Shown: one piece after another, positions 12,334 to 63,355 of the stretch
Position numbering within the stretch: the stretch's first letter is position 1
Layout of the letters: the number at the start of each line of letters is the position of its first letter
IMG/VR virus record: IMGVR_UViG_3300028280_000187
Strand: one strand, 5' to 3'
Source of the DNA: a virus
Taxonomy: Duplodnaviria > Caudoviricetes
Length of the DNA: 64,000 bases
The notes under the pieces: generated by a model
Databases searched by the model: none
Told to the model about the DNA's origin: nothing
Seen by the model: the letters and a program-made list of their open reading frames with translations, nothing else
Translations under genes and position numbers: made by a program

Positions 12334-12361
12334 AATATAACACGATTCGCTAGTTTGTCAA
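12334..12361 (-). promoter_or_regulatory. Early sigma70 promoter with GANTC in spacer
   Basis: TTGACA-AACTAGCGAATCGTGT-TATATT. Confidence 0.8.
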
Positions 12362-12364
12362 GTT

Positions 12365-12718
12365 TTAGTCTAAACGTGAACCACAAGAAGCATTAAACCC
12401 AGCAGAAGACATTACATCTGCATATGCCTGAGCACCTGCTTCTTTAACATCAACATTTTGTACGTTAACTTTACCTGGATTCCAGATTTGCCACGCTTTG
12501 CCAGTCCAATCTTTTGAAAATCCCATAGATTCTAACACTCTACGTTCTTCTTTACCTAGCTTAGTATTGCCCTTATTTTCAGGACGAACAGTAACCCATG
12601 CAAAACCACAGGGATAATTGTCCTTACCACCTAGTTTTGAATTGAAATAATCTAAAGAAGCCTGATTTGCTTTTGATTCTGCTAACACACTTAGTTCTTT
12701 TACTGTCATTGTAGTCAT
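12365..12718 (-). CDS. Conserved phage hypothetical protein (CGFAWV motif)
   Basis: 117 aa ORF with AGAGAGGG SD and promoter; CGFAWV...KEAGA.AYA.V...G...SRLD pattern. Confidence 0.75.
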   Translation of the reverse strand: MTTMTVKELSVLAESKANQASLDYFNSKLGGKDNYPCGFAWVTVRPENKGNTKLGKEERRVLESMGFSKDWTGKAWQIWNPGKVNVQNVDVKEAGAQAYADVMSSAGFNASCGSRLD

Positions 12719-12750
12719 ATTTAAACCCTCTCTTTATTGAATATACTATT

Positions 12751-12778
12751 ATTATACTACGATTCGCTAATCTGTCAA
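12751..12778 (-). promoter_or_regulatory. Early sigma70 promoter with GANTC in spacer
   Basis: TTGACA-GATTAGCGAATCGTAG-TATAAT. Confidence 0.85.
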
Positions 12779-12790
12779 GTTTTTAGCCAT

Positions 12791-12833
12791 AAAAAAACGG
12801 GTTAAATTGCATTTAATTACATTTTAACCCGTT
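12791..12833 (-). terminator. Intrinsic terminator after clpP; also holds tandem TTAA-N7-TTAA boxes
   Basis: Inverted repeat AACGGGTTAAA (12796-12806) / TTTAACCCGTT (12823-12833) followed by a T run on the minus strand. Confidence 0.75.
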
Positions 12834-12847
12834 AAGTATTAGACTAC

Positions 12848-13450
12848 TTACTGATTTTCAGGTCTTTCATTGATAATTTTATCAATTAACCCGTATTCTA
12901 GTGCCTCTTCTGGGCCCATGAACTTATCACGTTCCATATCACTATAGAAATCTTCATAAGTTTTGCCTTTAGAGTTATGTTTTACATAGATACTAGTCAA
13001 ACTTTCTTTAACTTTTAAGATTTCTTTGACTTGAATTTCCATGTCAGTTGCCTGTCCACCGGCGCCGCCACTTGGTTGATGTATCATGTGTCTTGCATGA
13101 GGTAACATAAATCGTTTGCCGGGAGCTCCCGCAGTTGCCAATAATGAACCCATGCTACATGCTTGACCTAAAACCATTGTTGAAACATCTGGTTGAATGA
13201 ATTGCATAGTATCATAGATTGCCATTCCGGCTGTTACTGCTCCGCCTGGTGAGTTGATATAAAAATGTATATCTTTTGTTGGGTTTTCTGCTTCTAGGAA
13301 CAGAAATTGGGCACAAAGTAAGTCAGACTGATAGTCATTGACTTCACCTGTTAAGAATATAACTCTTTCTTTTAACAAACGTGAGAATATATCAAAGCTA
13401 CGTTCTCCGTTTGCAGTTTGGTCTACGACCATTGGTACTAAGTTTGGCAT
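12848..13450 (-). CDS. clpP: ATP-dependent Clp protease proteolytic subunit
   Basis: [30 protein letters not shown], catalytic ACSMGS, MIHQP, ERD; start at ATG 13450 after GGAG. Confidence 0.97.
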
Positions 13451-13487
13451 ACTTTTATTTATTCTCCATTTGTATTTGATTAAATTA

Positions 13488-13516
13488 ATAATAACAGAAA
13501 TTACAACAAAAGTCAA
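13488..13516 (-). promoter_or_regulatory. sigma70 promoter for clpP
   Basis: TTGACT-17 bp-TATTAT on the minus strand. Confidence 0.65.
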
Positions 13517-13542
13517 TACAAAAAGTACGAAGTTTATATGTT

Positions 13543-13550
13543 GATAAATA
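13543..13550 (+). promoter_or_regulatory. Putative late promoter GATAAATA
   Basis: Octamer 26 nt upstream of the gp25 start. Confidence 0.75.
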
Positions 13551-13576
13551 CTCTTAATAAGTATAGAGAGAACATT

Positions 13577-13933
13577 ATGGCAAGATTTATAGGTTTCAGT
13601 ACTAAAAACAAAAGTGCAATCAATCATACTCTAACTGGAAAAGAGTTAGTAGTAGAAGATTTATTGAATAATATCATGACTCGCAAAGGCGAAAGAATTA
13701 TGATGCCTACTTATGGGTCGATTATACATGACCTTATCTTTGAGCCGTTGACCTCTAACATAAGAACACTTATTGAAGAAGATTTAACGAACATCATCAG
13801 CGATGAACCTAGAGTGAATTTAGAGTCCATTAACTTAACTGAAGGTGAGCATACAGTCACAGCATCTATTAGTGTCGCTATATTACCAGATAATGAGCCT
13901 GTAACACTAACAATAGATTTAAAGAGAGAATAA
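13577..13933 (+). CDS. gp25: Baseplate wedge subunit gp25
   Basis: [21 protein letters not shown]...EPRV signature; ATG 13577 after AGAGAG. Confidence 0.92.
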
Positions 13934-13937
13934 AAAA

Positions 13938-39935: not shown

Positions 39936-39936
39936 C

Positions 39937-40908: not shown

Positions 40909-40936
40909 CAAATATTAAACAATTAGGATAGATATT

Positions 40937-43320: not shown

Positions 43321-44542
43321 GCATGATGAAATACTTCATTTAGATTTTGAAAGTAGTAGCCTGTGCAATGCTCTCTGTCCTGTATGCAACCGCAGAGAAC
43401 AGGGTGGGAAAAAGAACCCAAGATACAAAGAGACTTATATTTCATTAGAACAATTTAAGAAGTATTTTAGTGTAAAATTCTTAACACAGTTATATGGCAT
43501 GTCTTTGTGTGGTAACTACGGTGACGCTATGACTAATCCAGAACTAATTGATATTCTAAAGTATACAAAATCTATAAATCCTAATATTAGAATTACAATG
43601 AATTCAAATGCTAGTGGTCGTAACGCAACCTTCTGGTACGAATTAGGACAGATAATCGGAACTAATGGACACATGACATTTAGTGTTGATGGACTTGAGG
43701 ATACAAATTGGATATATCGTAGAGGAACTCATTGGAATAAAATTATGACTGCTATGGAAAACTATATCGCTGGTGGTGGCCATGCTAGATGGGAATTCTT
43801 AGTATTCAAACATAATCAGCATCAAATAGAAGAGGCAAAGATATTAGCAAAAAAAATAGGCATACAAGATTTCTTTTCAAAGAAAGCATTGGGATTTGTT
43901 GACAGTGTGGTCGAAGGAAATGCACAATCATCTTTAGCAGTATTTAATGAAAGCGGAACAAAGGACTATGAATTGCATCCTCCATCTGATGGTAACTCTA
44001 ATGAAATCATTAATAAATATATTAAACAATCATCATTTAAACGAATCGACGGCGAAGACACAGACAGTCCAGAAAAGATTTTACAAACAATTCGATTTGC
44101 TAAAACAAACCCATCGGGTGAGTATACACACAAATATGAATTAGATGAAAACAGACCACTAACTGAACACGAAAAGAAGTTAGGAAATACAAGAATAGAT
44201 TGTATGGTTATCAAGCCTAAAAGTATTTTCGTGTCTAGTGAAGGATTAGTTTTCCCATGTTGTATGACTGCTAGTAAACTATATGCATTCCCAGATGAGG
44301 AAACTGTGCAGTTACAAAAATTTATAGATGACTTTGGTAAGGAAAGAATAAGTTTAGAACATACTAAACTAGAAGACATAATTAATGGTCCAATGTTTCA
44401 AACGCACTGGCCTGATAATTGGAAAGATAATAATATCAATAATAAAAGATTGAGAACGTGTTCAATCTTTTGTGGTAAAGATACTAATCAAGAATTCAAT
44501 GCAACCATGAAAAGTATTAAGAAGAAAGAAAGCTATGCATAG
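43313..44542 (+). CDS. Radical SAM protein with C-terminal SPASM/Twitch domain (type B3)
   Basis: CNALCPVC, CGNYGDAM, FSVDGLEDTN, PCC, CSIFCG; GGAG SD before ATG 43313. Confidence 0.9.
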   Translation: MYKHDEILHLDFESSSLCNALCPVCNRREQGGKKNPRYKETYISLEQFKKYFSVKFLTQLYGMSLCGNYGDAMTNPELIDILKYTKSINPNIRITMNSNASGRNATFWYELGQIIGTNGHMTFSVDGLEDTNWIYRRGTHWNKIMTAMENYIAGGGHARWEFLVFKHNQHQIEEAKILAKKIGIQDFFSKKALGFVDSVVEGNAQSSLAVFNESGTKDYELHPPSDGNSNEIINKYIKQSSFKRIDGEDTDSPEKILQTIRFAKTNPSGEYTHKYELDENRPLTEHEKKLGNTRIDCMVIKPKSIFVSSEGLVFPCCMTASKLYAFPDEETVQLQKFIDDFGKERISLEHTKLEDIINGPMFQTHWPDNWKDNNINNKRLRTCSIFCGKDTNQEFNATMKSIKKKESYA

Positions 44543-47177: not shown

Positions 47178-47550
47178 AGAAGAAATAACAAATCAATTTG
47201 AGCATAGCCAGATGACCAAGGCAGGAAAACTTGCTATGGAACTAGGTGCAGAAAAGAAAAGATTAAAAAAAGAATTAGCAGAACTACAGACAGAAGTAGA
47301 AGACTTAACTCCTACTACGCCAGTCGGAACAGTTGACTGGTATATCAAATGGGCGGCCATGGCATTGGCAGTGTCTGGTGTATTTCTAATGAGTGCGGGA
47401 CTAATATTTTGGGGACAAGTTGCATATATTATTAGTAGCATAGGATGGGTAGCAGTAGGTATGGCATGGGGAGATAGAGCGATTATGATAGGTAGTGCTA
47501 TCACTGGTACCGCAGTTATGATGAATTTCGTGCAGGGATATATAGTATGA
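47164..47550 (+). CDS. Small membrane protein with N-terminal coiled coil
   Basis: DWYIKW followed by three hydrophobic segments; AAGGAG SD. Confidence 0.7.
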   Translation: MDEIKEEITNQFEHSQMTKAGKLAMELGAEKKRLKKELAELQTEVEDLTPTTPVGTVDWYIKWAAMALAVSGVFLMSAGLIFWGQVAYIISSIGWVAVGMAWGDRAIMIGSAITGTAVMMNFVQGYIV

Positions 47551-48437
47551 AATATTATATAGCAGGAGACAGAGGACTTGTCGGTACTTGGTATAAGAAA
47601 CTTATAACTGATGCAGATGGAGGTAACACCCAGACTGCAAATTATAGTTCACGCATATCTACTAAACAAGATATACAAATGCGAAAGCCCACACACGTAA
47701 TTATAAATGCGGCTACTGTTGGTGGCCTGCAAGAAGACTTAGACAAGAGTTTTGAATTAATGATTAAGAACTTAACAATTCAAAATAACTTATTTGAAGC
47801 ATGTCGTTTCGCAAGAACAGACAGAGTACTACTACAAGGAAGCACATGTAGTTATCCAGAGATTGGCGAACAACCCTATAATGAAACTCAGTTACTACAA
47901 GGCGAACCTTTCGCTACATACTTTCCTACTGCATTACCTAAACTCATGGGTATGTATCAATGTAGAGCAAGTAATGAAAAGTACAATACTAATTGGCGTA
48001 CAGCAATAAACACAAATATGTTCGGACCGCATGATAGGACAGGAGAACATGCACACGTAATAGGTGCGTTGATGCAAAAGTTTGTAGACGCATGTAAAAG
48101 CAATGCAGACAGTATTGAGATATGGGGTTCTGGAAATCAAAGTAGAGATATACTTTACATTGAAGACGCAGTTGCGGCCATGGATATAATATTAAATAAT
48201 GACAAGTATGATACAGTCAACGTAGCAAGTGGCTATGAAATTTCTATCAGAGAAATAGCTGAACTATTAATTAAAGTCAGTGGTTACAAAGGTAATCTTT
48301 GGTTCAATACGGATAGACCTGAAGGAATTAAGAATAGAGCGATAGATAATTCTCGCTTAAAGGAATTAGGTTGGAAGCCAGAGTATAGTATGGAAGAAGC
48401 ATTTGCTAAAACATACAAGTGGTATTATGACTTATAA
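47547..48437 (+). CDS. GDP-L-fucose synthase-like NDP-sugar epimerase/reductase (Fcl/WcaG family)
   Basis: IAGDRGLVG, AATVGG, GSTCSYP, HVIGAL, IWGSG...R..LY..D, RPEG. Confidence 0.85.
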   Translation: MKYYIAGDRGLVGTWYKKLITDADGGNTQTANYSSRISTKQDIQMRKPTHVIINAATVGGLQEDLDKSFELMIKNLTIQNNLFEACRFARTDRVLLQGSTCSYPEIGEQPYNETQLLQGEPFATYFPTALPKLMGMYQCRASNEKYNTNWRTAINTNMFGPHDRTGEHAHVIGALMQKFVDACKSNADSIEIWGSGNQSRDILYIEDAVAAMDIILNNDKYDTVNVASGYEISIREIAELLIKVSGYKGNLWFNTDRPEGIKNRAIDNSRLKELGWKPEYSMEEAFAKTYKWYYDL

Positions 48438-49416
48438 TTATCAGTCTCAAACAAAAACAGATATACCAATACAAAGTTTTGATAATGATTTTGTTTATAC
48501 TGGTCCTAGTTGGGCTGTACAAAGTTATTCATCTCCATTAGGAGATAAAAGTGATGAGCCAAACATAAACATAGGTGATATGTTTGCAAAAGAATTTAAA
48601 CATAGTCTAGGAACACACAACCATGCATGGTTGCCTAGACATGGCAACAGTAATACAAAATGTGTACTAGAAATAAAAAAATGGCAAAAGAGAAAAGAGT
48701 ATGGAGTTGAACCATTCAGTGGACCAGTAATATGGGTCTTGTGCGATCCGTTAGCTAGATTATATTTTGATCCTGAGACAGGCCAACAGACATGGCCATT
48801 ATATAAGAAAGAAACAATACTTTATAAATCAATCACGTATAATAAATTTATTGAAAACTTACTTTGCAGTAATGATTGGCTATCGTACAGACATCAACTA
48901 TTACATATGGATTTAAAAGAAATGAATGAATTAAACATGCCTATAGGAATTATAGGATCTCATTCAGATATTACATATGTAGATGTTGAACCATATGAAA
49001 ATCTTACAGTCATAGAACCTAGTTGGCAAAATGTATTATGTGAACATGCAGGCATTAAAGGCATGTCTCCTAATCTAGGCGCAGACTTTGTACATCAAAC
49101 AATAAAAGCATACGCAAGTGAAGACGAAATTCATGCCTATATAGAAAAACATAATATAGATAAATACAGATGGGCACTGAATGAAAAGGTTGGAAAACTC
49201 ATGGCAATGTTAATGTCACAAGTTTTTGACCCTAAGATAACGAAATTTGTTCATCCCAATGTTGTAGACTATGTACACGGTCAATATGATTGTTGGAAAC
49301 AATTAGAAGAAAAACAATTATTTAACTGGGTACACCCAAGTATTGAGGGCAATTTAGTTTTCTATGAGCATGTAAAATATAAGATGGAGAAATTTGTAAA
49401 TGCTAACAAAAAATAG
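48427..49416 (+). CDS. SGNH-like hypothetical protein
   Basis: TGPSWA block I-like, HGNSN, C-terminal VHPS..G. Confidence 0.45.
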   Translation: MTYNYQSQTKTDIPIQSFDNDFVYTGPSWAVQSYSSPLGDKSDEPNINIGDMFAKEFKHSLGTHNHAWLPRHGNSNTKCVLEIKKWQKRKEYGVEPFSGPVIWVLCDPLARLYFDPETGQQTWPLYKKETILYKSITYNKFIENLLCSNDWLSYRHQLLHMDLKEMNELNMPIGIIGSHSDITYVDVEPYENLTVIEPSWQNVLCEHAGIKGMSPNLGADFVHQTIKAYASEDEIHAYIEKHNIDKYRWALNEKVGKLMAMLMSQVFDPKITKFVHPNVVDYVHGQYDCWKQLEEKQLFNWVHPSIEGNLVFYEHVKYKMEKFVNANKK

Positions 49417-50473
49417 TCATATGAACCCAGTGTATGGGAAAGAAGAAATAGAAAGCGTATACGACTATGTTAACTCTGGTGGTTGGATTATGGAACATAC
49501 CAAAACTAGAGAGTTAGAATCTCTTATATGTGACTATACTGGCGCCAAGTATGCACACATGGTAACAAGTGCTACTACAGGTCTCCTGTGTGCTTCTATG
49601 ATAGCTAAAATACAGCCAGGAGAAAAGTTTGCCGTAAGTGCGTATACACAAGCGGCTACATGTAACGGCGCAATACTAATGGGAGGCATACCAGTGATAG
49701 TTGATGTTGACCCATTTAGCTACTGTATAAACTTCGATAAGATACCATCTGATTGTAGAGTTATATTTGTATCAGCAATCAATGGAAGATACCCAAAAGA
49801 TGTTCAAGAACAAATCAAATCTTTAAGAGAAAGTGGTAGAGTCGTAATTGAAGACTCTGCACAAGCACTAGGTAGTAGAACAGTAAACGATATACACTGT
49901 GGTACTATGGGTGACATGGGCGTATTCAGTTTTGGAGCACCAAAGATTATTACTACAGGACAAGGTGGTTGCATCATTACTAATGATAAAGGTATTAGTG
50001 ATGAGATTGTAGCAATCAAAAACTTTGGCAGAACGGTCAAGGTTGGAGAAGTATATAATGTCATGGGTTCTAATTTTAAGTTTACAGATTTACAAGCATC
50101 TTTCGGTGTACCACAGATGAAGAAACTGCCATTTATTGTCGAGCATAAGAAACATTTATTTAAGTGGTATTGTAAACATCTAAAAGGTGTGGTAGATTTT
50201 ATTAATACTGATTTAGAATTTGTAACGCCAACGTATCCTGAAATATTAGTAAGCAAACGTGATGAACTTGTATTAGAATTACGAGAAGAAGGCATAGGAT
50301 GCCGTGCAGTATATGATAGTCTATGTAATCAACCCTTTCATAAACAATGGAAAACCCCTACACCAATTGCAGACGAATTAGCAAGTAGAGGCCTACATTT
50401 ACCAGGTCAGTTTGATTTACGTGAAGAAGACGTAAAGAAGATTGCAAGTGTTATTAAAAATCACGCGGCGTGA
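49400..50473 (+). CDS. DegT/DnrJ/EryC1/StrS PLP-dependent NDP-sugar aminotransferase
   Basis: SATTGL, IEDSAQALG, FSFGAPK.ITTGQGG (PLP lysine), GSNFKFTDLQA. Confidence 0.93.
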   Translation: MLTKNSHMNPVYGKEEIESVYDYVNSGGWIMEHTKTRELESLICDYTGAKYAHMVTSATTGLLCASMIAKIQPGEKFAVSAYTQAATCNGAILMGGIPVIVDVDPFSYCINFDKIPSDCRVIFVSAINGRYPKDVQEQIKSLRESGRVVIEDSAQALGSRTVNDIHCGTMGDMGVFSFGAPKIITTGQGGCIITNDKGISDEIVAIKNFGRTVKVGEVYNVMGSNFKFTDLQASFGVPQMKKLPFIVEHKKHLFKWYCKHLKGVVDFINTDLEFVTPTYPEILVSKRDELVLELREEGIGCRAVYDSLCNQPFHKQWKTPTPIADELASRGLHLPGQFDLREEDVKKIASVIKNHAA

Positions 50474-51354
50474 TATAACTTAACTAAACTATCAATACCA
50501 TCTTCAAGAGTTTCGGTAGCAGTGAATCCGATGTTTCTAATTTTTGAATAGTCAACAAAATAGTCTCTGCCATCTTTATCGTGAGATAATTCATCGTTAA
50601 TAATTAATTCATAATCGACTTTGCTTTTAATAATTTGTGCAATGTCTAACTTAGTATGATTTAATGTTTCATCACCGACATTCCATATCTCGCCTTTCAT
50701 AATATCGTATTTCTCTAACGCCCATCTGAATGAACGTGCCAAGTCGTTAATGCTTAAGAAAGTACGTTTGAAGTGCTTTTCAAATAAGACCAATTTCTTT
50801 TCAGCTATTGCTTTGTAAGTAAAGTCATTAACAAGTAAGTCTTGTCTTAATCTATTACTCACACCAAATGCAGTTGCTGGTCTTAGTATAACCGCATCAG
50901 TTCCTTCTAATTTCTTTTCACCATCAAGTTTGTAAACACTGTATGTACTGATTGGATTAGTCTCACATGTTTCGTCACATGTCTTGCCTAACTCACCGTA
51001 TACACTTCCTGTACTTGCATATACAAAAGGCTTATCAATAGAAGCATCAATAACTCTATTAGTTCCTTCTACATTAATTCTGTATGCTAAGTCTGGTTCA
51101 CGTTCACATGCAGGATATCCTACAATGCCTGCTAGATGTATTACTGCATCTGCACTTTTTAGAATAGGCTCAACTGCTGGATCACAGATATCCATCTTAT
51201 GTAGATGAAATCCTTTTCTATCTAAGATATTTAATATAGGTTGTACCCCATACTTTAACCAATCTATACAAATAACTTCATGTCCGTTATTCAGTAATTG
51301 TTCACTTAATCTACAACCAACATATCCTGCCCCGCCTGTTATTGCAATTTTCAT
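50461..51354 (-). CDS. NAD-dependent NDP-sugar epimerase/dehydratase/reductase
   Basis: ITGGAGYVG, HLAGIVG, ASTGSVYG, YSVYK (YxxxK). Confidence 0.92.
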   Translation of the reverse strand: MKIAITGGAGYVGCRLSEQLLNNGHEVICIDWLKYGVQPILNILDRKGFHLHKMDICDPAVEPILKSADAVIHLAGIVGYPACEREPDLAYRINVEGTNRVIDASIDKPFVYASTGSVYGELGKTCDETCETNPISTYSVYKLDGEKKLEGTDAVILRPATAFGVSNRLRQDLLVNDFTYKAIAEKKLVLFEKHFKRTFLSINDLARSFRWALEKYDIMKGEIWNVGDETLNHTKLDIAQIIKSKVDYELIINDELSHDKDGRDYFVDYSKIRNIGFTATETLEDGIDSLVKLYHAA

Positions 51355-51941
51355 TTTATGTTCTCCTTGAATAATTTATAATCTTCTAAGTAATATTCCT
51401 TAATTTGTGCTTTATATTTTTTTAATTGTAATTTTAATTCTTCTTTCTGTTTAGAAATATCATTATAACGTGTTGTATTTTGAATGGTCTCTAATACATT
51501 ATCTATATGTTTATGTCCTATAGGTCTTATGTTGTCTGCATCTATATAATGCAAAGGTACATCTTCAAGCCCTTCTAAAAAACTACACTGAGTTTTCATG
51601 TGAACATCGTCTTCCCTGTTACTTAACCACCATTCTATGCTTTCTTCTATTGTACAATTATATATTTTTGATACTACTGATAGCTGTCCTAAAAATCGTT
51701 CACTAGGGTATCGTATAAATGTATAACCTGTATAAGAAAGTGTCCATGAATCATTTTTTGGCAGTGATACAAGTTTATAATCATATTGTTCTGCTATATT
51801 GAACAAGAAACTTGAACTAGCATTTCTCCAAATAGGAACAAAGTACGTATGGTGTTTATGATTTATCCATATGGCGTCTTCCCATAACTTGACTGACCCG
51901 TTCTGTGCAATCACTTCTTTGGCAGTATATTCTCTAATCAT
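51351..51941 (-). CDS. Sulfotransferase family 2-like protein
   Basis: FVPIWRNASSS (5'-PSB-like), TFIRYPSERF (3'-PB-like), H.KTQ..F, Y.EDYKLF. Confidence 0.6.
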   Translation of the reverse strand: MIREYTAKEVIAQNGSVKLWEDAIWINHKHHTYFVPIWRNASSSFLFNIAEQYDYKLVSLPKNDSWTLSYTGYTFIRYPSERFLGQLSVVSKIYNCTIEESIEWWLSNREDDVHMKTQCSFLEGLEDVPLHYIDADNIRPIGHKHIDNVLETIQNTTRYNDISKQKEELKLQLKKYKAQIKEYYLEDYKLFKENIK

Positions 51942-53124
51942 CTGATTTATTTTCTGCAATATGTACTATGGGCATTGCAAATAACATTCTACCGCCTTGC
52001 TCAATCCATTCACTTTCTTTTTCTGTAAACATATCTTTAAACCCAAAGTTAGGAACAAAGAACAAGTCTGCATCTTTCTTTGCATCATCTTCGTGTACAA
52101 TGGGTATACCTGTGCCGACTGTGAATCTGCCTACTTTGTCTGGATGTATTTCTGCCGCACCATCAAACAACCCATGTAGTTTCCAAAATTGCAACATTGT
52201 ATTTCCTTTTGTACTAGCGCCGTAAACATAATTCTTACCGCCGTTTTTCTTGTTGTCTGTCAATACGGTTCTTAATAACGCACCGTTGCGTTCTACATCA
52301 TTAAAGAATGTTTTCAATGAAGATAAGTCTTCGTAGTGTTCAATACTGCCTTCATTCTTTTTTCTAGCCCACAGTTGATAACTACCGCCTTGTATATCGT
52401 TCTCTACTACTTTGTAAATCTCAAGACCATTAGTTTCATATAATTCTACAAGACTTTTATAGCTGTAGTATTCTAAATGTTCATGACATACATTGCCTAA
52501 GTCTTTCATTTTAAGCATAGGAGCAAGTGTCATTAACTGAGCAATAAAAATGCCATCATCGGTCATCGCCTCATTTACGCTATAAATGAAATCATTTGGA
52601 TTATCCATATCATAAAACATACCAATAGCAGTAATAACTTTTGCTTTCTTACCTTGCATCAGTTTGTAATGCCACATGTCATTAATTGTTGCTTCGCAAT
52701 TCTTTACTAACTTCTTAATTAGATTAGGTGCTGGTTCGCATCCTATCCTATATCTATCTGAGTTAACTGCACTAAGTAGTGTACCGTCATTTGCACCGAT
52801 ATCTAATACAACATCACCTTTAGTAGTGTTGTCATTTATATATCCTGCAATGTCGAATAGGTTATCTTTTAGTTTCTTGTTAAGTCCACTTTCATACCAA
52901 TAGTGTTCACCATATAATACTTTTGGATTAACTGTATGTCTAAGTTGAACCAAATCACAATTCACACATTGGTCCAGAACCATGGGCGCTTCTCCCGGAG
53001 TATGATTTGGGTCTAAAGGAAAATCATTTATGTGTATAGAACCAAAGTCTACAACCTTTTTAACCTCAGAACCACAAACTCTACAGTCCGTTCGTTCATT
53101 TATAATCATAGGATAATTACTCAT
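51934..53124 (-). CDS. NDP-hexose 3-C-methyltransferase (Zn-binding)
   Basis: CRVCGS and C..C Zn site, LDIGANDG, HEHLEYY, YGASTKGN. Confidence 0.9.
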   Translation of the reverse strand: MSNYPMIINERTDCRVCGSEVKKVVDFGSIHINDFPLDPNHTPGEAPMVLDQCVNCDLVQLRHTVNPKVLYGEHYWYESGLNKKLKDNLFDIAGYINDNTTKGDVVLDIGANDGTLLSAVNSDRYRIGCEPAPNLIKKLVKNCEATINDMWHYKLMQGKKAKVITAIGMFYDMDNPNDFIYSVNEAMTDDGIFIAQLMTLAPMLKMKDLGNVCHEHLEYYSYKSLVELYETNGLEIYKVVENDIQGGSYQLWARKKNEGSIEHYEDLSSLKTFFNDVERNGALLRTVLTDNKKNGGKNYVYGASTKGNTMLQFWKLHGLFDGAAEIHPDKVGRFTVGTGIPIVHEDDAKKDADLFFVPNFGFKDMFTEKESEWIEQGGRMLFAMPIVHIAENKSDD

Positions 53125-53500
53125 TAGTATCTACCCTAGTCAAAGGCTCATCACAGTCGTCCCATTTCTTCGTTATGAGTGCGATTGCTTTTGAGTCTGA
53201 TGTTGGATAGAATGTATGAGGTGTCAGTCTAGGAATAAAGATACAGTCTCCTGTTGCAACGGGAGTTACTAATTCTTTTCCTTCTGATAACTCAGTATAC
53301 ACACCGCTTCCTTCTACAAACATAATGTATTCATCAAACTCTTTGTGTAGATGATGTCCTCTCACAGAACCTTTTAGAGTTACTATATAACTCCATTCTT
53401 TAATATCAGTTGTTTGAGGATAGTATGTGCTTATTATACCTCTGCCATCTTTAACTGTTATTGGATTGATATCTGGGTCTAGTTTAATAATTCTTTTCAT
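53117..53500 (-). CDS. Cupin, NDP-sugar isomerase/epimerase-like (FdtA/WxcM/RmlC type)
   Basis: DGRG, VRGHHLHK..DE, IP...PH motifs. Confidence 0.7.
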   Translation of the reverse strand: MKRIIKLDPDINPITVKDGRGIISTYYPQTTDIKEWSYIVTLKGSVRGHHLHKEFDEYIMFVEGSGVYTELSEGKELVTPVATGDCIFIPRLTPHTFYPTSDSKAIALITKKWDDCDEPLTRVDTNE

Positions 53501-53527
53501 ATTTTAATTCTCTATTAACTACATACT

Positions 53528-53535
53528 TATTTATC
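53528..53535 (-). promoter_or_regulatory. Putative late promoter GATAAATA for the minus-strand sugar operon
   Basis: tatttatc on the plus strand, 27 nt upstream of ATG 53500 and just downstream of a terminator. Confidence 0.7.
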
Positions 53536-53538
53536 TAT

Positions 53539-53565
53539 AAAAAAAGCCCGACATTGAGCCGGGCT
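53539..53565 (-). terminator. Intrinsic terminator after the FG-GAP gene
   Basis: AGCCCG/CGGGCT stem followed by a T7 run on the minus strand. Confidence 0.8.
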
Positions 53566-53590
53566 AATTTAGTTTAAAAATAGTTAATTA

Positions 53591-55348
53591 TTAGAAATCT
53601 GACTTATATTTCCAATAGCCTCCAGGCGCCATCATATCAGCATCTGGGAATCCTGTGAACTTTCTGTTCTGTCCACCGTACTCGCTTTTGTAAAAGTCAA
53701 CCCATTCATTCTCCCATGCTTGGTAAGGAGATACTTTCTTAAACTCTAAGTTACCTTGATTTACAAAGAACCAACCACTATGCACATCTTGAGGAGATCC
53801 TTGGCACATAATATCCATCAGCCCATCATTGTTTACATCAATCAAAACATTTCTCGTACAAAATGAGTTGTATGCATTTGTTTCCATGTTGATGCCTTTC
53901 TTAAATCCTTTTCTTGTTTTAACAAAGTCAGGAGAAGGAATAAGTGGAGTTTGGTCTGCGACAGTAAAGTTACCTTTGCCATCATTAGCCCAAATAGTTG
54001 TTGTACCACCAACATATAGTGGACCAATATTTGAACCTGCGATATCTACATCGCCATCATTATCAAAGTCCCATGATACTGGACCAATAACATCAGTTAA
54101 CAAGAACCCAGAACCAAAGATATCATTTGCTGATTCCATAGAAGTTCTTTTCTTCTTGCCGAAATAACCTGAACTATCACCAAATAGAATTACAGTTTGT
54201 TGTTGAGGCAAAGAACTATCGTGCTTGTAAGCTGGACTCTGATGCCATCCGCCTGATGCCATTAAGTCTACATGTCCATCACCGTTGTAATCACCTGTTG
54301 TAAGAGCATGAGCCCACTGGTCACCGCATTTCTTTACAGTAAAAATACCTTTACCATCATTCACATGACACCAGATATTACCACCACCTTTAGACCTAGA
54401 CCATTGCACATCTGATACGATAACATCAATGTCACCATCGTTGTCAATATCTGCCGCAGTGGCACCGTGACTAAAGTTATGGAATGTTCCGTTCTTATCT
54501 ATCTTCACACCCTTTTCAGCAGTTTCTATCCATTGTCCTTTTCCATTAGAAAGAAATACTAAGTCAGCGCCTCCGTACTGATGTTTGCCATTGACTTTGG
54601 CTTTATATGCACTAGGAGAATAGATATCATCAATACCGTCACCATTGAAGTCTGCCGTAATAGTTCTAATACTATTCCTTGGCGAGACATGATTATTTAC
54701 AACGATTTGTTCTACTAAATCTTTTCTACTCATGCTACCAATTTCAAACAATGCGAAAGGGAGTCTTTGTTGTATGTCTGACATTTTTTCGTCACCACAC
54801 TTCCAAGTACCAATGTTACCATCTGATTCAAATTTACCTCTACATTGATTATGTAGTTCGAACCCCATTACTAAGTCAGGAGTATTGTCGCCATTAAGAT
54901 TTGCGAATGCACCAGTAATAGTCCAGAAGATTTCTTGATTATCTCCTTGATATTCTCTCATGTAAAAATCACCTGGTAGAAAGTATCTTTTTGTTCTCCA
55001 TGTTCCCGGAGATACCATGTTGTCAGGAGAAATATAATTACCAAATGTTGTAATCATACCATTCTTTTTTTGTGTTTCAAAATCTAATGCAGGCATTTCT
55101 GACACTGCTAGTTTCAAATCTGTAATCTCATTAGCATCTATTGTGCCGTCAAATACTTTGCCACTATCAGCATAGAAATTTTCTATAGCCGTTGTTGTAA
55201 GATTTCCAGTTAACCCATCTGTTGGGCCTGCTTGATAGCCTAACTGATTAAGCATCTGTTGACTAGCCATTACATTGGGTGATGCAAATGACATTGTACC
55301 TATAGCTACAACCATTGATGTAGTAGCAAGTAACTTTTTCATATTCAT
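53591..55348 (-). CDS. Secreted protein: signal peptide, peptidoglycan-binding domain and FG-GAP/VCBS repeats
   Basis: MKKLLA..signal; QQMLNQLGY..G..DG..G..T..AI..F (PG_binding_1); repeats DFNGDGIDDI, DIDNDGDIDV, DYNGDGHVDL, DFDNDGDVDI, DVNNDGLMDI. Confidence 0.85.
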   Translation of the reverse strand: MNMKKLLATTSMVVAIGTMSFASPNVMASQQMLNQLGYQAGPTDGLTGNLTTTAIENFYADSGKVFDGTIDANEITDLKLAVSEMPALDFETQKKNGMITTFGNYISPDNMVSPGTWRTKRYFLPGDFYMREYQGDNQEIFWTITGAFANLNGDNTPDLVMGFELHNQCRGKFESDGNIGTWKCGDEKMSDIQQRLPFALFEIGSMSRKDLVEQIVVNNHVSPRNSIRTITADFNGDGIDDIYSPSAYKAKVNGKHQYGGADLVFLSNGKGQWIETAEKGVKIDKNGTFHNFSHGATAADIDNDGDIDVIVSDVQWSRSKGGGNIWCHVNDGKGIFTVKKCGDQWAHALTTGDYNGDGHVDLMASGGWHQSPAYKHDSSLPQQQTVILFGDSSGYFGKKKRTSMESANDIFGSGFLLTDVIGPVSWDFDNDGDVDIAGSNIGPLYVGGTTTIWANDGKGNFTVADQTPLIPSPDFVKTRKGFKKGINMETNAYNSFCTRNVLIDVNNDGLMDIMCQGSPQDVHSGWFFVNQGNLEFKKVSPYQAWENEWVDFYKSEYGGQNRKFTGFPDADMMAPGGYWKYKSDF

Positions 55349-55379
55349 AATTAACCTCTCTATTGTTGATTATGTATAT

Positions 55380-55407
55380 ACTATAACACGATTCGATAGT
55401 TTGTCAA
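55380..55407 (-). promoter_or_regulatory. Early sigma70 promoter with GANTC in spacer
   Basis: TTGACA-AACTATCGAATCGTGT-TATAGT. Confidence 0.85.
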
Positions 55408-55411
55408 GTTT

Positions 55412-56194
55412 TTAGCTATTATTTTTTCTTTGTATGTCTGTTTCTTCACATAATTCACCATATTGTACTTCAATTATGTGTGCTGGTTCATCACCGATAT
55501 TTGTTGTTTTATGCCAGCATTCCTTAGGTATTAAGAATGTGTCATGTGGACGCAGATAGATTGCTTCTTTTTTCTTACCAAATTCTAGTTCAATCATGAT
55601 ATCTCCTTCTAAGACATACCAATATTCGTTTCTATATCTATGTTTCTGATTTGATAAACTCTTGCGTGGGTTGATAACTAGTTCTTTGACTTTTTGCCCA
55701 ACCTTAGGTTGCTTATCATCAAGTACTCGCCAGTAGCCCCATGTTCTATGTGTTCTCTGTGTTTTCCAATCATCAAGTATCCAACTACTAGAGTTACGTT
55801 TGTTTGTACCACCTACACCAAATTCAAATCTGACCCATGGCATTTCTGCGTATTGTTTGTATTCGGGTGTTGTAGCATTACCTCTATCTCCGCCATTTGC
55901 GAATATAAACTTAGTACCAATTGGATACATAGATTGTATCTTGTATAATGCGTAACTGGCTGTATCGTCACTATCATCAAAGTCAATAACCTTGTCAACT
56001 ACTTCTAGTGCTTCGATGATTGCTTTGCGTTCAGCAAAGTTCATAAATGCTCTGCCTTTTTTACGGGTAAGCCATTCGTCTGAATTTATCCCTACGACTA
56101 ATTCATCACCGAGTTCTTTTGCTGATTTAAAATACTCTATATGTCCAGAGTGTAGTGGGTCGAACCCACCCGTTACTAAAACTACTTCTTTCAT
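55412..56194 (-). CDS. Cytidylyltransferase-family nucleotidyltransferase fused to a type II mannose-6-phosphate isomerase-like cupin
   Basis: TGGFDPLHSGH (HxGH), NSDEWL.RKKG, FANGGDR, K.NSSS; then R.WG.WRVL, LS.QKH..R.E.W, IIEVQYG..C.E.DI.R. Confidence 0.88.
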   Translation of the reverse strand: MKEVVLVTGGFDPLHSGHIEYFKSAKELGDELVVGINSDEWLTRKKGRAFMNFAERKAIIEALEVVDKVIDFDDSDDTASYALYKIQSMYPIGTKFIFANGGDRGNATTPEYKQYAEMPWVRFEFGVGGTNKRNSSSWILDDWKTQRTHRTWGYWRVLDDKQPKVGQKVKELVINPRKSLSNQKHRYRNEYWYVLEGDIMIELEFGKKKEAIYLRPHDTFLIPKECWHKTTNIGDEPAHIIEVQYGELCEETDIQRKNNS

Positions 56195-56240
56195 GTTAAT
56201 ACTTATCTTCTTGGGATTTAGTAATTTGTATACGTTTGAA

Positions 56241-56624
56241 TTATTTACTTGAGTATATTTCTTCAAACTTGCTTTCTCTGTCTAAGAATTTATATTCTAC
56301 TTTCGTAGGTTCCATTACTTCTAAGAAAGGTAGAACCTGATTAGGATCCATTTCAGAACAAGTATATACATCTAACTGACACAATGCAGGACTCACTTCG
56401 TCCCATATATGCATAGCGATATGTGATGTTTCTATAATTGCAAAGGCTGTTAACCCTCTGTTGCCTTCCATCTTACAATACGTGGCAGTAGGACCATACA
56501 TCGGTTTCATGCCGATTGCTTTAATCATCTTTCGCAAATACTTAATTGCCTTATTTTTATTTTGTAAAGGCTTATTAACCTCTGCACGAATTAATAGGTG
56601 CTTGTGTACTAGTAACTTATTCAT
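56241..56624 (-). CDS. speD: S-adenosylmethionine decarboxylase proenzyme
   Basis: HKHL, IIETSHIAMHIW (pyruvoyl-forming Ser in the SH motif), LDVYTC. Confidence 0.88.
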   Translation of the reverse strand: MNKLLVHKHLLIRAEVNKPLQNKNKAIKYLRKMIKAIGMKPMYGPTATYCKMEGNRGLTAFAIIETSHIAMHIWDEVSPALCQLDVYTCSEMDPNQVLPFLEVMEPTKVEYKFLDRESKFEEIYSSK

Positions 56625-56632: not shown

Positions 56633-56737
56633 TTAGTCTTTCATTGGTGGTTCTTCATTATTCCATAAGACAAGCATTAAAATAATGCCGGCAAATATAC
56701 CGGCAGTAAGTAATAAGGATATAAGTATAGGACTCAT
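56633..56737 (-). CDS. 34-aa single-pass membrane peptide (below ORF track cutoff)
   Basis: MSPILISLLLTAGIFAGIILMLVLWNNEEPPMKD; ATGA overlap with the upstream stop. Confidence 0.55.
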   Translation of the reverse strand: MSPILISLLLTAGIFAGIILMLVLWNNEEPPMKD

Positions 56738-57534
56738 ATAGCTTTAACGTAATTTAATCTTGTCTCTGCAATGTGGTCTTGATTCCAAACAGTACCGTGG
56801 CTTTTTACTTTAGCACTAATTGTAAAATCTTTATCAACTTCCCATATTTCTTTTGTACTAAAGAAACTAATACGGTTGCCGTCACTAGTGATAGCTGATA
56901 CATTTAGTCCTGGATAACTCTGACTACTGTTTGCTTTGAGAACAGTAATGTCTGCGAACACAAGTCCATCTTTGCGGGTTGATGTTAAGTGTACTGAATT
57001 TTCACTACGGTCAGTAACTTCCCGTTCCCATACTTTTTTAACTGCATAAGTCGGTAGATAAGCGGCAACACCCCAATATTGCTTTGGTAATTTATCTGTA
57101 GTTGCAAGAATAGTTGCAATGCCACTTTCAAATTCATTCATGTTCTCTGACATAATCTTAAACATGAAATCCATTTCAAGTTCTTTAATAATTTCTTTTG
57201 CCGCATTCATATGCTTTGGTTGTATTAAGTGTGGATAAAGATGCAACACGCCGACTAGAATTTCTTTGTTAGGTAATTTCATTTGTAGATAACGACTACC
57301 CTCTGGAGTCTCGGCAAAACTATAAACTCCTTGGTCAACTTTTATATACTCACCTTCATTCATTTCGTTTGCAACTAGGGATGCCGCAATAACAGTTTCA
57401 CGGTTCCAACCATTTTCTTCACGTTCCTTAATATCTTTATAGTCAACGCCCGAGTTGTCTAGTTGAAAGTTGTACTTGTGATGATAGAGTACGTTACGTT
57501 CAAAATGAGTGTGCTTATCACCTACATGTTCCAT
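56734..57534 (-). CDS. Hypothetical protein with possible C-terminal OB-like fold
   Basis: AGAGG SD before ATG 57534; C-terminal 'I.AKVK.H....ETRLNYVK' pattern. Confidence 0.65.
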   Translation of the reverse strand: MEHVGDKHTHFERNVLYHHKYNFQLDNSGVDYKDIKEREENGWNRETVIAASLVANEMNEGEYIKVDQGVYSFAETPEGSRYLQMKLPNKEILVGVLHLYPHLIQPKHMNAAKEIIKELEMDFMFKIMSENMNEFESGIATILATTDKLPKQYWGVAAYLPTYAVKKVWEREVTDRSENSVHLTSTRKDGLVFADITVLKANSSQSYPGLNVSAITSDGNRISFFSTKEIWEVDKDFTISAKVKSHGTVWNQDHIAETRLNYVKAI

Positions 57535-57567
57535 ACTATATACCTCTGCTGAATTAATCATAATATT

Positions 57568-57595
57568 ATATTAACACCTTTTTCATAGTTGTCAA
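57568..57595 (-). promoter_or_regulatory. Early sigma70 promoter (no GANTC)
   Basis: TTGACA-ACTATGAAAAAGGTGT-TAATAT. Confidence 0.6.
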
Positions 57596-57597
57596 GT

Positions 57598-57996
57598 TTA
57601 TGGGTGTAGCGGAAACAAACCCAAGATTGCATTAATAACCGGATCATCCTTATCACCAAATACATAACCACATGTATCAAGTGGTATGTGATGCACTACG
57701 TCTCCGTCTTGAATAGGATATGTTGGGTCGTGTACTATTCCACAATGTGATAGATGTTTCTCTGCCATCATAATAGAAGATTGTAATTGGGCTTCATTGA
57801 CACTTAGAACAAGAACTGTTCCGAAACCCTGCGTAGTCTCATTAGACCACATATTAAACAATTCGTAATCAATCATTCCTCCCTCTTTTATATTGTGAAC
57901 AAACTGATTACTGGCATGTGATGCCTGCGCCATTGCTTTACCAGGGTTAAGACTATCTAAGTCATTACGCATTAGTATATAAAGTACCGGTGTCAT
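57598..57996 (-). CDS. Peptidyl-tRNA hydrolase type 2 (Pth2-like)
   Basis: YILMRNDL.S.NPGKAMAQASHA signature, W...G..VLVL. Confidence 0.75.
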   Translation of the reverse strand: MTPVLYILMRNDLDSLNPGKAMAQASHASNQFVHNIKEGGMIDYELFNMWSNETTQGFGTVLVLSVNEAQLQSSIMMAEKHLSHCGIVHDPTYPIQDGDVVHHIPLDTCGYVFGDKDDPVINAILGLFPLHP

Positions 57997-58019: not shown

Positions 58020-58057
58020 CATAAATATAGTATATAGTGATTCGAACTATTTGTCAA
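58020..58057. promoter_or_regulatory. Overlapping promoters: minus-strand early promoter with GANTC and plus-strand late-like CATAAATA
   Basis: Minus: TTGACA-AATAGTTCGAATCACTA-TATACT (58057-58029); plus: CATAAATA 58020-58027. Confidence 0.7.
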
Positions 58058-58067
58058 GGAATTTAAT

Positions 58068-60912: not shown

Positions 60913-60924
60913 TCTAGTGCTTAT

Positions 60925-61284: not shown

Positions 61285-61294
61285 ATGTGCCTCC

Positions 61295-61591
61295 TTAAGC
61301 TACTTTACGTGTTATCATTGATTTGTGCAATCGAGTACTACCTCGAAAGATTGGGTTATTACCAGCATTAGATACGTCTACTGTTGAACGATTGTTCTTG
61401 GTAATGACACCTTGCTTTAGTACCCCACCGTATTCCCATTCGATAGTATCACCAATCTTAAGTCCTGCGGCTTTTTGTTTACCTAGAAACGTTTGGTGTC
61501 TACGAAAATGGTCTGCTAGTACTGACAACTCACCACTAGATTGTATACGGCTCAGAGCCACGATTGCATTTTCTAATTCTTTACTCATCAT
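61295..61591 (-). CDS. Hypothetical protein with SH3/KOW-like C-terminus
   Basis: LKIGDTIEW...G.ITK.NR.TV.V; AGAGAGG SD and promoter. Confidence 0.7.
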   Translation of the reverse strand: MMSKELENAIVALSRIQSSGELSVLADHFRRHQTFLGKQKAAGLKIGDTIEWEYGGVLKQGVITKNNRSTVDVSNAGNNPIFRGSTRLHKSMITRKVA

Positions 61592-61624
61592 AGTATTAAC
61601 CTCTCTTTTATTAACTATACTTAC

Positions 61625-61652
61625 AGTATAACACTGATTCGATATTTGTCAA
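61625..61652 (-). promoter_or_regulatory. Early sigma70 promoter with GANTC in spacer
   Basis: TTGACA-AATATCGAATCAGTGT-TATACT. Confidence 0.85.
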
Positions 61653-61656
61653 GTTT

Positions 61657-61956
61657 TTACAACATATCCAATATAGGAGACTTCAACCAAGCACGTAAAC
61701 CCTTTTCATACTGTATTGAATCAGCAAACTTCTGTTTGTCAAATGGTTTGACAATCGTTTGTTCTAGGGCTTTCATCTTCTTGGCTTGTACTAGTGTTAC
61801 ACGTACACGTTTGTTATCATCAGTAAGCACTGACGTAAGCGGTTTAGGGTTCCCTTGCGAGTCTTCTATCTTAGAAAACTGTAGGAACATCTTCGCTTGT
61901 TTATACGACGGACCGTATTCATCTTCTTCTGTTCTGTTATAACTTTCTTTGCTCAT
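61657..61956 (-). CDS. Hypothetical protein
   Basis: 99 aa, AGAGAGG SD. Confidence 0.7.
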   Translation of the reverse strand: MSKESYNRTEEDEYGPSYKQAKMFLQFSKIEDSQGNPKPLTSVLTDDNKRVRVTLVQAKKMKALEQTIVKPFDKQKFADSIQYEKGLRAWLKSPILDML

Positions 61957-62066
61957 AATACTACCTCTCTGTTAGTTTGTTATTTGCGTGTCCTCCGAAA
62001 AAGGCGTCGCGGAAACTCTTTCTCTTTCGGAAAATTTTTCTCATATAGATAAACTACTCATATAAT

Positions 62067-62213
62067 CTATTGTTGTCTAGTCCTCCGAAGTTCACGTTTA
62101 ACCCGTTTCATTTCACGATACATGTGCCAACGGTATTGCAAGTATTCAGACCCTATAATAACGGCTGAGACAATGATTGACGCTATCCCAATGATAATCC
62201 AATCAGAATACAT
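62067..62213 (-). CDS. 48-aa membrane-anchored basic peptide (below ORF track cutoff)
   Basis: MYSDWIIIGIASIIVSAVIIGSEYLQYRWHMYREMKRVKRELRRTRQQ; TAATG overlap with the upstream stop. Confidence 0.6.
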   Translation of the reverse strand: MYSDWIIIGIASIIVSAVIIGSEYLQYRWHMYREMKRVKRELRRTRQQ

Positions 62214-62593
62214 TATGATACCGCCATCAATTCTATCTTACCACTTGCTGAGTTAGGTACTAGTTCCATGTGTACATTCTGCTCAACAGCCGCATCAAGG
62301 ATAATCTGTTCCATAATCGGTTCTACTATCTCTGTAATACGATCCCACTGACCTTCATAGTAATACCCGTGACGATATTCAGGTAATGGTAATTGATCCC
62401 GGCGTAAGCCTAACACACGTAACTGCCTACCCCTATTACCCAATCCGTTATTGAATATGTCATGTACTACATTCCCTGCTTTACGTAGTCGCTCTAAACA
62501 CTTATTCTTATTCACTGAATGTACAGAACCCTCTAGTGGAATACTTTCATCTAGTTTATATACTACTGATTCTAAATCTTTACATACCCACAT
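62213..62593 (-). CDS. Hypothetical protein
   Basis: 126 aa; LR.A.N..HD.FNNGL.N motif; GAAAGG SD and promoter. Confidence 0.7.
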   Translation of the reverse strand: MWVCKDLESVVYKLDESIPLEGSVHSVNKNKCLERLRKAGNVVHDIFNNGLGNRGRQLRVLGLRRDQLPLPEYRHGYYYEGQWDRITEIVEPIMEQIILDAAVEQNVHMELVPNSASGKIELMAVS

Positions 62594-62621
62594 GTTTAAA
62601 CCTTTCTTTGACTATAGATAT

Positions 62622-62649
62622 AATATATCACTGATTCTTTATTTGTCAA
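62622..62649 (-). promoter_or_regulatory. Early sigma70 promoter with GANTC in spacer
   Basis: TTGACA-AATAAAGAATCAGTGA-TATATT. Confidence 0.8.
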
Positions 62650-62653
62650 GTTT

Positions 62654-62983
62654 TTATTGATAGTATTTTGGATTATTATATATCTCATCAGCAATCATAT
62701 TATTCTCATGTAGAATAGCTAACTGAGTATGTGGATGAAACGCAACACACATAAATCCATCTTCTTCGTATAGCTTAATGTTCTCTTGATACTCATGTTC
62801 AGTTAAACAATCAGCATACTCTAAGTGAGTTAATCCTGGTTCTAATACTAGATAGTCATGCTTGAAGTTGACAAATTCGGTATCGGGTTCTAAATCATGC
62901 TTAGATAAAAAGTTCTCATACATAGTAGTAGCAAATGAGTTAGAGGCAGAACTTATATAGTTAGACATATTAGTAACAATCAT
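62654..62983 (-). CDS. Hypothetical acidic protein
   Basis: 109 aa, AAGGAG SD and promoter. Confidence 0.65.
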   Translation of the reverse strand: MIVTNMSNYISSASNSFATTMYENFLSKHDLEPDTEFVNFKHDYLVLEPGLTHLEYADCLTEHEYQENIKLYEEDGFMCVAFHPHTQLAILHENNMIADEIYNNPKYYQ

Positions 62984-63012
62984 AGGGGAGACTCCTTAAT
63001 TAAGATATACGT

Positions 63013-63041
63013 AGTATACACGATTATACACGGTTTGTCAA
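63013..63041 (-). promoter_or_regulatory. Early sigma70 promoter (degenerate GANTC)
   Basis: TTGACA-AACCGTGTATAATCGTG-TATACT. Confidence 0.75.
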
Positions 63042-63355
63042 GTTTTGGCACCCTATACATGACACGGTGGTAAAAATATTCTGCGTATTTTTTTGGAATG
63101 TGGATCCAATATAAAAAAGTGGTAAACACTGTATAGGGAAACCCTATATGGAAATAGAGGCAAAAAATGGTCTGCGACCAAACGCCACCTCCAGGCCAAA
63201 CACTTTCCTACTATATATACAAAAGTTCCGATTCGCAAGGCCTTTTATTTTATTTTTTATTTTTACCTGAATCTTTTTGTTTTTCTTTCCATGCACGGTA
63301 ACCATCAAGCCACGCTGTTTCCATAGTAGTAGGAGTCTTACTCTTAGACTTCTTA

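Follow-up and report, generated by a model that had tools for sequence, protein, structure and literature searches.

A GcrA-type box at a fixed place in the promoter spacers of uncultured marine giant phages

A 64,000-nt stretch of the IMG/VR virus record IMGVR_UViG_3300028280_000187 (hereafter the window) carries a class of minus-strand promoters, AAAAC-TTGACA-N16/17-TAnnnT, most of which hold a GANTC site in the spacer that separates the -35 element from the -10. Judged by its conservation among related phages, this box, with the consensus MGAWTCR, is a functional, position-fixed promoter element of the -35/-10 spacer. It resembles the sites read by GcrA, a protein that accompanies sigma70-RNA polymerase in Alphaproteobacteria; GcrA inserts its small DNA-binding domain into the major groove at a GANTC box near -20, where the polymerase lies on the other face of the DNA, binding is best when CcrM has N6-methylated GANTC, and the Caulobacter protein accepts GAGTC as well. 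On the comparisons given below, the phage probably borrows the GcrA of its host, and we put the probability that a GcrA-type host factor reads the box at about one half.

Eight promoters in the window share the common form, mostly with a TG extended -10. In each, AAAAC lies directly 5' of the -35, and a ribosome-binding site of AGAGAGG type and an ATG follow about 35 nt downstream of the promoter. In six of the eight the promoter strand reads GAATC in the spacer, with 6-8 nt between it and the -35 and 4-5 nt between it and the -10; all six boxes fit the GcrA consensus YGAKTCK and two are its top-ranked word, TGATTCG. The promoters, together with a weak ninth candidate, are listed here with the open reading frames (ORFs) that they drive, lengths being in amino acids (aa).

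12334..12361, minus strand: P1, boxed, AAAAC-TTGACA-AACTAG-CGAATCG-TGT-TATATT; box is plus-strand CGATTCG 12343-12349; drives a 115-aa ORF, 11956-12303
12751..12778, minus strand: P2, boxed, TTGACA-GATTAG-CGAATCG-TAG-TATAAT; box is plus-strand CGATTCG 12760-12766; drives a 117-aa ORF, 12365-12718
55380..55407, minus strand: P3, boxed, TTGACA-AACTAT-CGAATCG-TGT-TATAGT; box is plus-strand CGATTCG 55389-55395; drives a 585-aa protein, 53591-55348
57568..57595, minus strand: P4, same promoter class without GANTC; drives a 275-aa ORF, 56734-57561
58029..58057, minus strand: P5, boxed, TTGACA-AATAGTT-CGAATCA-CTA-TATACT; box is plus-strand TGATTCG 58038-58044; drives a PTH2-like 132-aa ORF, 57598-57996
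61625..61652, minus strand: P6, boxed, TTGACA-AATAT-CGAATCA-GTGT-TATACT; box is plus-strand TGATTCG 61635-61641; drives a 98-aa ORF, 61295-61591
62622..62649, minus strand: P7, boxed, TTGACA-AATAA-AGAATCA-GTGA-TATATT; box is plus-strand TGATTCT 62632-62638; drives a 126-aa ORF, 62213-62593
63013..63041, minus strand: P8, same class with a degenerate box (TAATCG for GAATCG); drives a 109-aa ORF, 62654-62983
63215..63250, minus strand: weak ninth promoter candidate, in which TATATA is preceded by a poor -35, TTGCGA, that CGAATCG overlaps

A preliminary description of the window had reported these eight CTTGACA-N16/17-TAnnnT promoters, with CGATTCG at 12343, 12760 and 55389, TGATTCG at 58038 and 61635, TGATTCT at 62632, a degenerate site at 63021 (TAATC on the promoter strand) and none at 57568, and the sequence agrees at every position. 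It was also right that the other sigma70-like promoters of the window, at 2672 (there called gp55), 13516 (clpP) and 29804, lack the box, and that a CGATTCG at 63229 overlaps the -35 of the ninth candidate, although that -35-like TTGCGA is weak. P8 has in addition a GAGTC downstream, within its ribosome-binding site. There are 117 copies of GANTC in the window, about 0.0018 per position, compared to 195 +/- 13 in shuffled sequences. With the promoters taken as independent, finding GANTC within one base of a single position in six of eight has a probability of about 1e-12, and chance cannot explain the placement.

The window (35% G+C) encodes a large myovirus and has many relatives in IMG/VR, where conservation of the box could be followed. 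Among them are G001, whose genome of 342,607 bp is complete and has terminal repeats (76% aa identity), and G002, a 187-kb fragment with 85% aa identity in the baseplate wedge. When relatives were scanned with the pattern AACTTGACA-N5-9-GANTC-N3-6-TAnnnT, with the reversed pattern as control, G001 gave 18 forward and no reverse matches and none with the control, G002 gave 10 forward and no reverse matches, and a third relative, G003, gave three. In all, G001 has about 20 promoters of this kind, every one of them on the same strand. Scans of IMG/VR by central base found GAATC in at least 115 stretches and GATTC in 81; GAGTC and GACTC together were found in 43, each with a single match, which we take as mostly background. 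The same phage clade as that of the window accounts for 120 of 170 IMG/VR loci that match the box architecture.

To describe the class without any condition on the spacer, we assembled 50 promoters from G001, the window and loci fetched with a baseplate protein, and numbered positions with the -10 hexamer at -12 to -7, such that all positions refer to predicted rather than mapped transcription starts. The positional enrichment of GANTC in spacers that the preliminary description had proposed to look for is clear in this set: GANTC is present in 38 of the 50, with its G at -21 in 34 and at -22 in three; in a tally over 51 promoters the figures are 35 and three. Information content peaks at G-21, A-20, W-19, T-18, C-17, R-16, T-15 and G-14, the last two forming the extended -10 (T at -15 in 45/50, G at -14 in 40/50), and the consensus reads MGAWTCR-TG-n-TATAnT, or YGATTCK on the template strand. 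Among the box 7-mers of the relatives the commonest are CGAATCG (41), CGAATCA (19), AGAATCA (15) and AGAATCG (12), and approximately 90% of the boxes fall within the eight of 32 NGANTCN words that YGAKTCK covers. A second GANTC copy abuts the -35 (G at -28) in nine of the 50 promoters. This TTGACA-GAWTC arrangement, seen in about one fifth of promoters, occurs for instance in G001 at 80842, 169063 and 337736 and in loci L009-L014; loci L007 and L008 have the -28 copy in promoters whose -21 copy is decayed, reading GAATTG.

Might the box simply be a functionless passenger, inherited with a duplicated promoter cassette? P1, P2 and P3 are nearly identical over 28 nt, as such an origin would predict. 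Across more than 100 promoters from many genomes, however, GA-W-TC is retained although the seven bases that precede the box, back to the -35, are free to differ. The position of the box is fixed to within one base, and its central base flips between orthologous promoters: P1 has GAATC in the window, whereas its orthologues in loci L002-L006 have CGATTCG on the promoter strand. Common descent is thus not the sole cause of the box, as the flanks vary and the central base flips while GA..TC stays. GAWTC is, moreover, otherwise the second most avoided 5-mer of the genome by z-score. With the conservation pattern already contradicting it, we regard absence of function as very improbable. Orthologous promoters can also be followed through their exceptions: P2 is kept in L002-L006 and in G001 at 168652, the P4 orthologue in G001 (125242) is likewise box-less, and the P8 orthologue there (118631) is also degenerate (CTAATCG). 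The idea that one asymmetric word is used in both orientations was rejected, as the flanks stay M...R relative to the promoter whatever the central base.

GcrA-activated, CcrM-methylated sigma70 promoters such as PcsM have been characterized in Caulobacter crescentus (Haakonsen 2015, PMC4647560; Wu 2018, PMC5887438; Wu 2023, PMC9976885). The Caulobacter GcrA word is TGATTCG, more broadly YGAKTCK, a consensus that takes in seven of the protein's eight best-bound words, and sites of the GcrA regulon are "narrowly centered around -20" or lie at +2 to +30 (PMC4647560). The GcrA-RNA polymerase-sigma70 complex was solved by cryo-electron microscopy on a PcsM derivative with the non-template sequence TTGACA-CCCGGGC-G(m6A)ATC-CCTGC-TATAAT, where m6A is N6-methyladenine and the box is at -22 to -18; two upstream GcrA positions, -20 +/- 1 and -30 +/- 2, have been distinguished (Wu 2023, PMC9976885). 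The phage box, at -21/-22 to -17/-18, coincides in place and strand with the Gm6AATC box of PcsM, which bears out the earlier description of a position-fixed spacer site of GcrA type.

The likeness extends to the GANTC core with YGAKTCK flanks, including TGATTCG itself (CGAATCA on the other strand), to the box centred at -19/-20 with GAATC on the non-template strand in the geometry TTGACA-N6/7-GAATC-N4/5-TATAnT, as in the TTGACA-N7-GAATC-N5-TATAAT of the cryo-electron microscopy scaffold, and to the presence in some phage promoters of a second upstream site. There are also differences. The second site is centred at -26 in the phages, as opposed to -30 +/- 2 in Caulobacter; the phage promoters are near-consensus with a TG extended -10, whereas those of Caulobacter are GC-rich and weaker; the centre of the phage box is A or T only, and there are no phage sites at +2 to +30. 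Furthermore, the phage promoters lie in phage genomes and drive small ORFan genes.

In the explanation we favour, the reader of the MGAWTCR box would be the GcrA of the host, bound to sigma70-RNA polymerase and docking directly upstream of the TG extended -10, with docking strengthened by CcrM N6-methylation. The promoters, which combine a UP-like A-tract, a perfect -35, the GcrA box, TG and a near-consensus -10, would then be optimal for a GcrA-loaded holoenzyme and would drive expression of small and probably early genes as soon as the DNA is injected. On this view the host would possess both GcrA and CcrM, the DNA in virions would be methylated at the boxes, and GcrA would bind them; the promoter type and the small ORFan genes downstream suggest that the class is early, and one may speculate that the promoters are gated by the cell cycle.

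With respect to the host, G001 encodes a permuted two-piece transfer-messenger RNA (tmRNA) that scores 122.6 bits with the Rfam alpha_tmRNA model (gathering score 50), the best of the tmRNA-clan models; the scores are 122.1 bits in G002 and 91.7 bits in both G003 and G004, and among 14 control genomes the model matches Caulobacter only. The tags encoded by the phage tmRNAs are ANDNYQPEMAMAA, ANANYQPEMAMAA, ANTNAAPAMAKLAA and ANDNYAPEMALAA. The tmRNA loci are as follows.

L211:1167-1489 (281167-281489 in G001)
L332
L333
L334
L335:3380-3915

These tmRNAs give good but indirect support for an alphaproteobacterial host. The host assignment in the preliminary description is accordingly upheld as far as alpha-type tmRNA in box-sharing relatives goes, with the evidence coming from those relatives and not from the window itself. 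The phage tmRNA gene lies behind its own box-less sigma70 promoter, and the same phages encode ClpP. A comparison of the phage tmRNA, by BLAST and local alignment, against a class sample of 400 genomes and an order sample of 30 turned up no close host tmRNA, and the tag peptides resemble those of several unrelated lineages with no single one standing out. A scan of GTDB for the tmRNA signature gave only one match, to a contig in the metagenome-assembled genome (MAG) 'Rickettsiales bacterium SAT45' (G007); this contig was rejected as a source of host tmRNA, as it is itself phage.

The order of G007 comprises 42 small genomes of about 30% G+C, in which GcrA was found in 0/42 and PF01555 methylases in five. 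Public MAGs of this order contain jumbo-phage contigs: C8 of G007 (PALK01000009.1; L335) and C3, C5 and C10 of G417, a related 2.0-Mb MAG. Either the bins are contaminated or these contigs hint at the host of the box-less relatives. They share 47-59% aa identity with the window clade, have GANTC in none of 14 sigma70-type promoters and do not avoid GATC. We considered the binning into a GcrA-less order as evidence against GcrA and rejected it, given this distance, the missing box and the different GATC profile; as the binned contigs are only 47-59% aa relatives, their binning says nothing on the host of the window. If anything, the binning would place box-less phages with a GcrA-less lineage, which is the co-variation predicted if GcrA is the reader.

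A less probable but live alternative to host GcrA, already raised in the preliminary description for a phage-encoded activator, is that a phage-encoded or virion-delivered DNA-binding regulator reads MGAWTCR and that the likeness to the GcrA box is coincidence or mimicry; it might be a repressor that occupies the spacer and closes the promoters after the early period, or else an injected activator. The box is confined to one subclade, as a lineage-specific factor predicts: 10 of 17 promoters of the near subclade are boxed, as opposed to 0/10 in IMG/VR relatives at 56-60% aa. The same distribution counts as co-variation on the side of GcrA as well. The A/T-only centre and the promoter-oriented flanks (M 5', R 3') are also more specific than GANTC, and the avoidance of GAWTC elsewhere in the box-using subclade is in keeping with such a factor, as are promoters that require no activator and the existence of cultured alphaproteobacterial phages without the box. 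Set against this is the large coincidence that core, both flanks, position and strand would all match the GcrA box in phages with an alpha-type tmRNA. Five to seven base pairs are, in addition, short for a dimeric helix-turn-helix repressor, and a GcrA-like monomer or enzyme-like reader would fit better.

No candidate protein for such a regulator was identified. Searches for phage gcrA and ccrM, envisaged in the preliminary description, came back empty: PF07750 (GcrA) has no six-frame match at E <= 0.01 in G001, which is complete, G002 or G003, and no GcrA and no methylase of the families PF01555, PF02086 or PF05869 was found in G001-G004. A weak PF01555 match in G001 was rejected as a methylase, the protein belonging to the radical SAM/SPASM group. 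With neither GcrA nor a methylase of these three families in G001-G004, both reader and writer would be host factors. A shared host determinant is also hinted at by a different phage type: the complete 158-166 kb phages G446 and G447 (IMG/VR 3300045988_106160 and _120782; L244 and L255) have two promoters of the same architecture each (TTGACA-AATAGTA-GATTC-GTGC-TATAAT), and their fetched loci show no tblastx similarity to the jumbo clade. Beyond that clade, this phage type alone has two clear copies, so that wide sharing of the box by unrelated phages was not upheld. A blastn search for cultured phages with the 36-nt promoter consensus returned nothing relevant.

Several further observations weigh against host GcrA as the reader. 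None of the 38 boxes in the 50-promoter set has G or C at its centre, AGATTCG, which lies outside YGAKTCK, occurs in seven copies among the boxes, and no GANTC enrichment was found elsewhere within +/-100 nt of the promoters in that set, +2 to +30 included. By sequence, the perfect -35, TG and near-consensus -10 would make the promoters strong without an activator, and fast-replicating phage DNA may be poorly methylated without a phage methylase. No box enrichment was found in the cultured alphaproteobacterial myophages Atu_ph07, HTVC008M, RHph_TM61 and phiM12, and a published scan of cultured alphaproteobacterial phages found CtrA sites and no positional signal for GcrA sites (Mascolo 2022, PMC9437464). 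An alphaproteobacterial host does not guarantee GcrA: of 151 genomes sampled from the class, only 100 gave a match, a tally that includes one unpublished genome, G047, on which no result depends. Nor is the architecture commoner where GcrA is present, with 13 matches in the 100 GcrA genomes and 10 in the 51 without, an underpowered comparison. The last point against GcrA is the pattern of avoided words: genome-wide, observed/expected is 0.58-0.60 for GAWTC and only 0.85-0.88 for GASTC, and GAWTC avoidance sits in what looks like a restriction-avoidance profile.

In that profile, GCWGC (GCAGC/GCTGC) is absent, with 0 versus 21 expected in the window and 0 versus 104 in G001 (L197-L214), GATC has an observed/expected ratio of 0.25, and GGATG/CATCC, AGCTC and AGATC are also low in both. 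GCWGC is partly kept in the 56-60% aa relatives (0.33 per kb), and the density of GAWTC is 1.2-1.5 per kb in the box-using subclade as opposed to 1.9-2.7 per kb in box-less relatives. GANTC as a whole is under-represented (observed/expected 0.65) and denser in intergenic DNA (5.5 versus 1.7 per kb in the window), a distribution also reported for CcrM-bearing Alphaproteobacteria (Gonzalez 2014). The profile could help to identify the host.

The avoidance of GAWTC would imply a host methylase of that specificity, a point in favour of a third explanation, which we consider unlikely: that the box belongs intrinsically to the core promoter recognized by the host polymerase, or acts by methylation without GcrA. 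As an intrinsic element it could prolong the extended -10 in the upstream direction (GAWTC-RTG-n-TATAnT), or it could give the spacer a DNA shape to which sigma region 3 or the beta' zipper responds; in the other variant, m6A from a host GANTC/GAWTC methylase would tune promoter melting or binding directly. The conserved block from G-21 to G-14 is indeed continuous with the TG motif. However, neither sigma70 nor the core polymerase is known to make a contact that reads five bases in a row from -21 to -17, and the 12 of 50 class promoters without GANTC, like the box-less P4 and degenerate P8, point to an optional module and not to a core element.

Bacterial promoters bear on this explanation as well. 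Among 401 alphaproteobacterial genomes, TTGACA-N6-8-GAWTC-N4-5-TAnnnT gave 52 matches (one of them in an unpublished genome, G247) compared to 14 for the reversed control. These matches include the tuf and rpsP promoters of the low-GC MAG G113 (C57 and C80; L385 and L386), both with GAATC at 4 nt upstream of their -10, and in G085 (C7; L384:5048) the exact phage architecture, TTGACA-N7-AGAATCG-TGT-TATATT, stands upstream of a small gene. G113 and G085 are low-GC MAGs, each from a single-species alphaproteobacterial order. Their GAATC promoters are what an intrinsic or methylation effect would lead one to expect, but both MAGs have GcrA, so that these promoters do not separate such an effect from reading by GcrA.

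Returning to GcrA as the reader, a more specific scheme can be put forward, although as a joint claim it is a long shot. Only injected genomes would be fully methylated, by the CcrM of the previous host, and would fire through the GcrA-loaded polymerase; as there is no phage methylase, replication would dilute the mark and the early class would silence itself without a dedicated repressor, with firing tied to the GcrA-rich S phase of the host. If this were true, presence of the box across the phage family should track host GcrA and CcrM. If GcrA does read the box, with or without this scheme, the class would be the first among phage promoters to be built on a GcrA docking site. To our knowledge, GcrA as a methylation-reading sigma70 cofactor has so far been seen only at alphaproteobacterial cell-cycle genes. 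The class would then also represent a new form of polymerase capture, in which a virulent phage matches a cofactor-loaded holoenzyme instead of bringing its own factor, and would provide a sequence signature for host prediction of abundant uncultured marine giant phages.

Two known phage systems invite comparison. Like T4-type early promoters, those described here join an A-tract on the upstream side to -35 and -10 elements of strong host type and occur in many one-strand copies before small, probably early genes of a myovirus with a gp55-type (late sigma) factor; we know of no position-fixed 5-bp palindromic spacer word in T4 early promoters, and of none that matches a host methylation site. 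The second is the use of cell-cycle regulators by phiCbK-like phages, for which CtrA boxes (as in other phages) and a phiCbK GcrA homologue have been described along with CcrM-like methylases of Sinorhizobium phages (Mascolo 2022, PMC9437464). There, as is proposed here, phage transcription would be tied to a host global regulator specific to Alphaproteobacteria, but in our phages the box is fixed inside the core promoter and no GcrA or CcrM homologue was found in the relatives.

Finally, we note the gene content of the window and its wider distribution. No near match was found among GenBank phages searched with the window; among cultured phages, Rak2/GAP32/121Q-like jumbo phages come nearest, although their amino-acid identity is only about 31%. 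Proteins of the window are present on 79-166 public marine contigs, the longest being 322 kb. Its genes include those for baseplate wedge and hub proteins, with a giant ORF of 2946 aa in the baseplate operon, for ClpP, and for a radical-SAM cluster and sugar-nucleotide enzymes. The 585-aa protein behind P3 has a peptidoglycan-binding domain and FG-GAP repeats, and the minus-strand ORF directly behind P5 (57598-57996) is a homologue of PTH2-type (archaeal/eukaryotic-type) peptidyl-tRNA hydrolase (E 1.7e-7). A cluster of radical SAM/SPASM paralogues followed by the sugar-nucleotide genes occupies 33531-44542 and 47547-56266, and the latter genes encode an epimerase, a C-methyltransferase and a cytidylyltransferase-cupin fusion.

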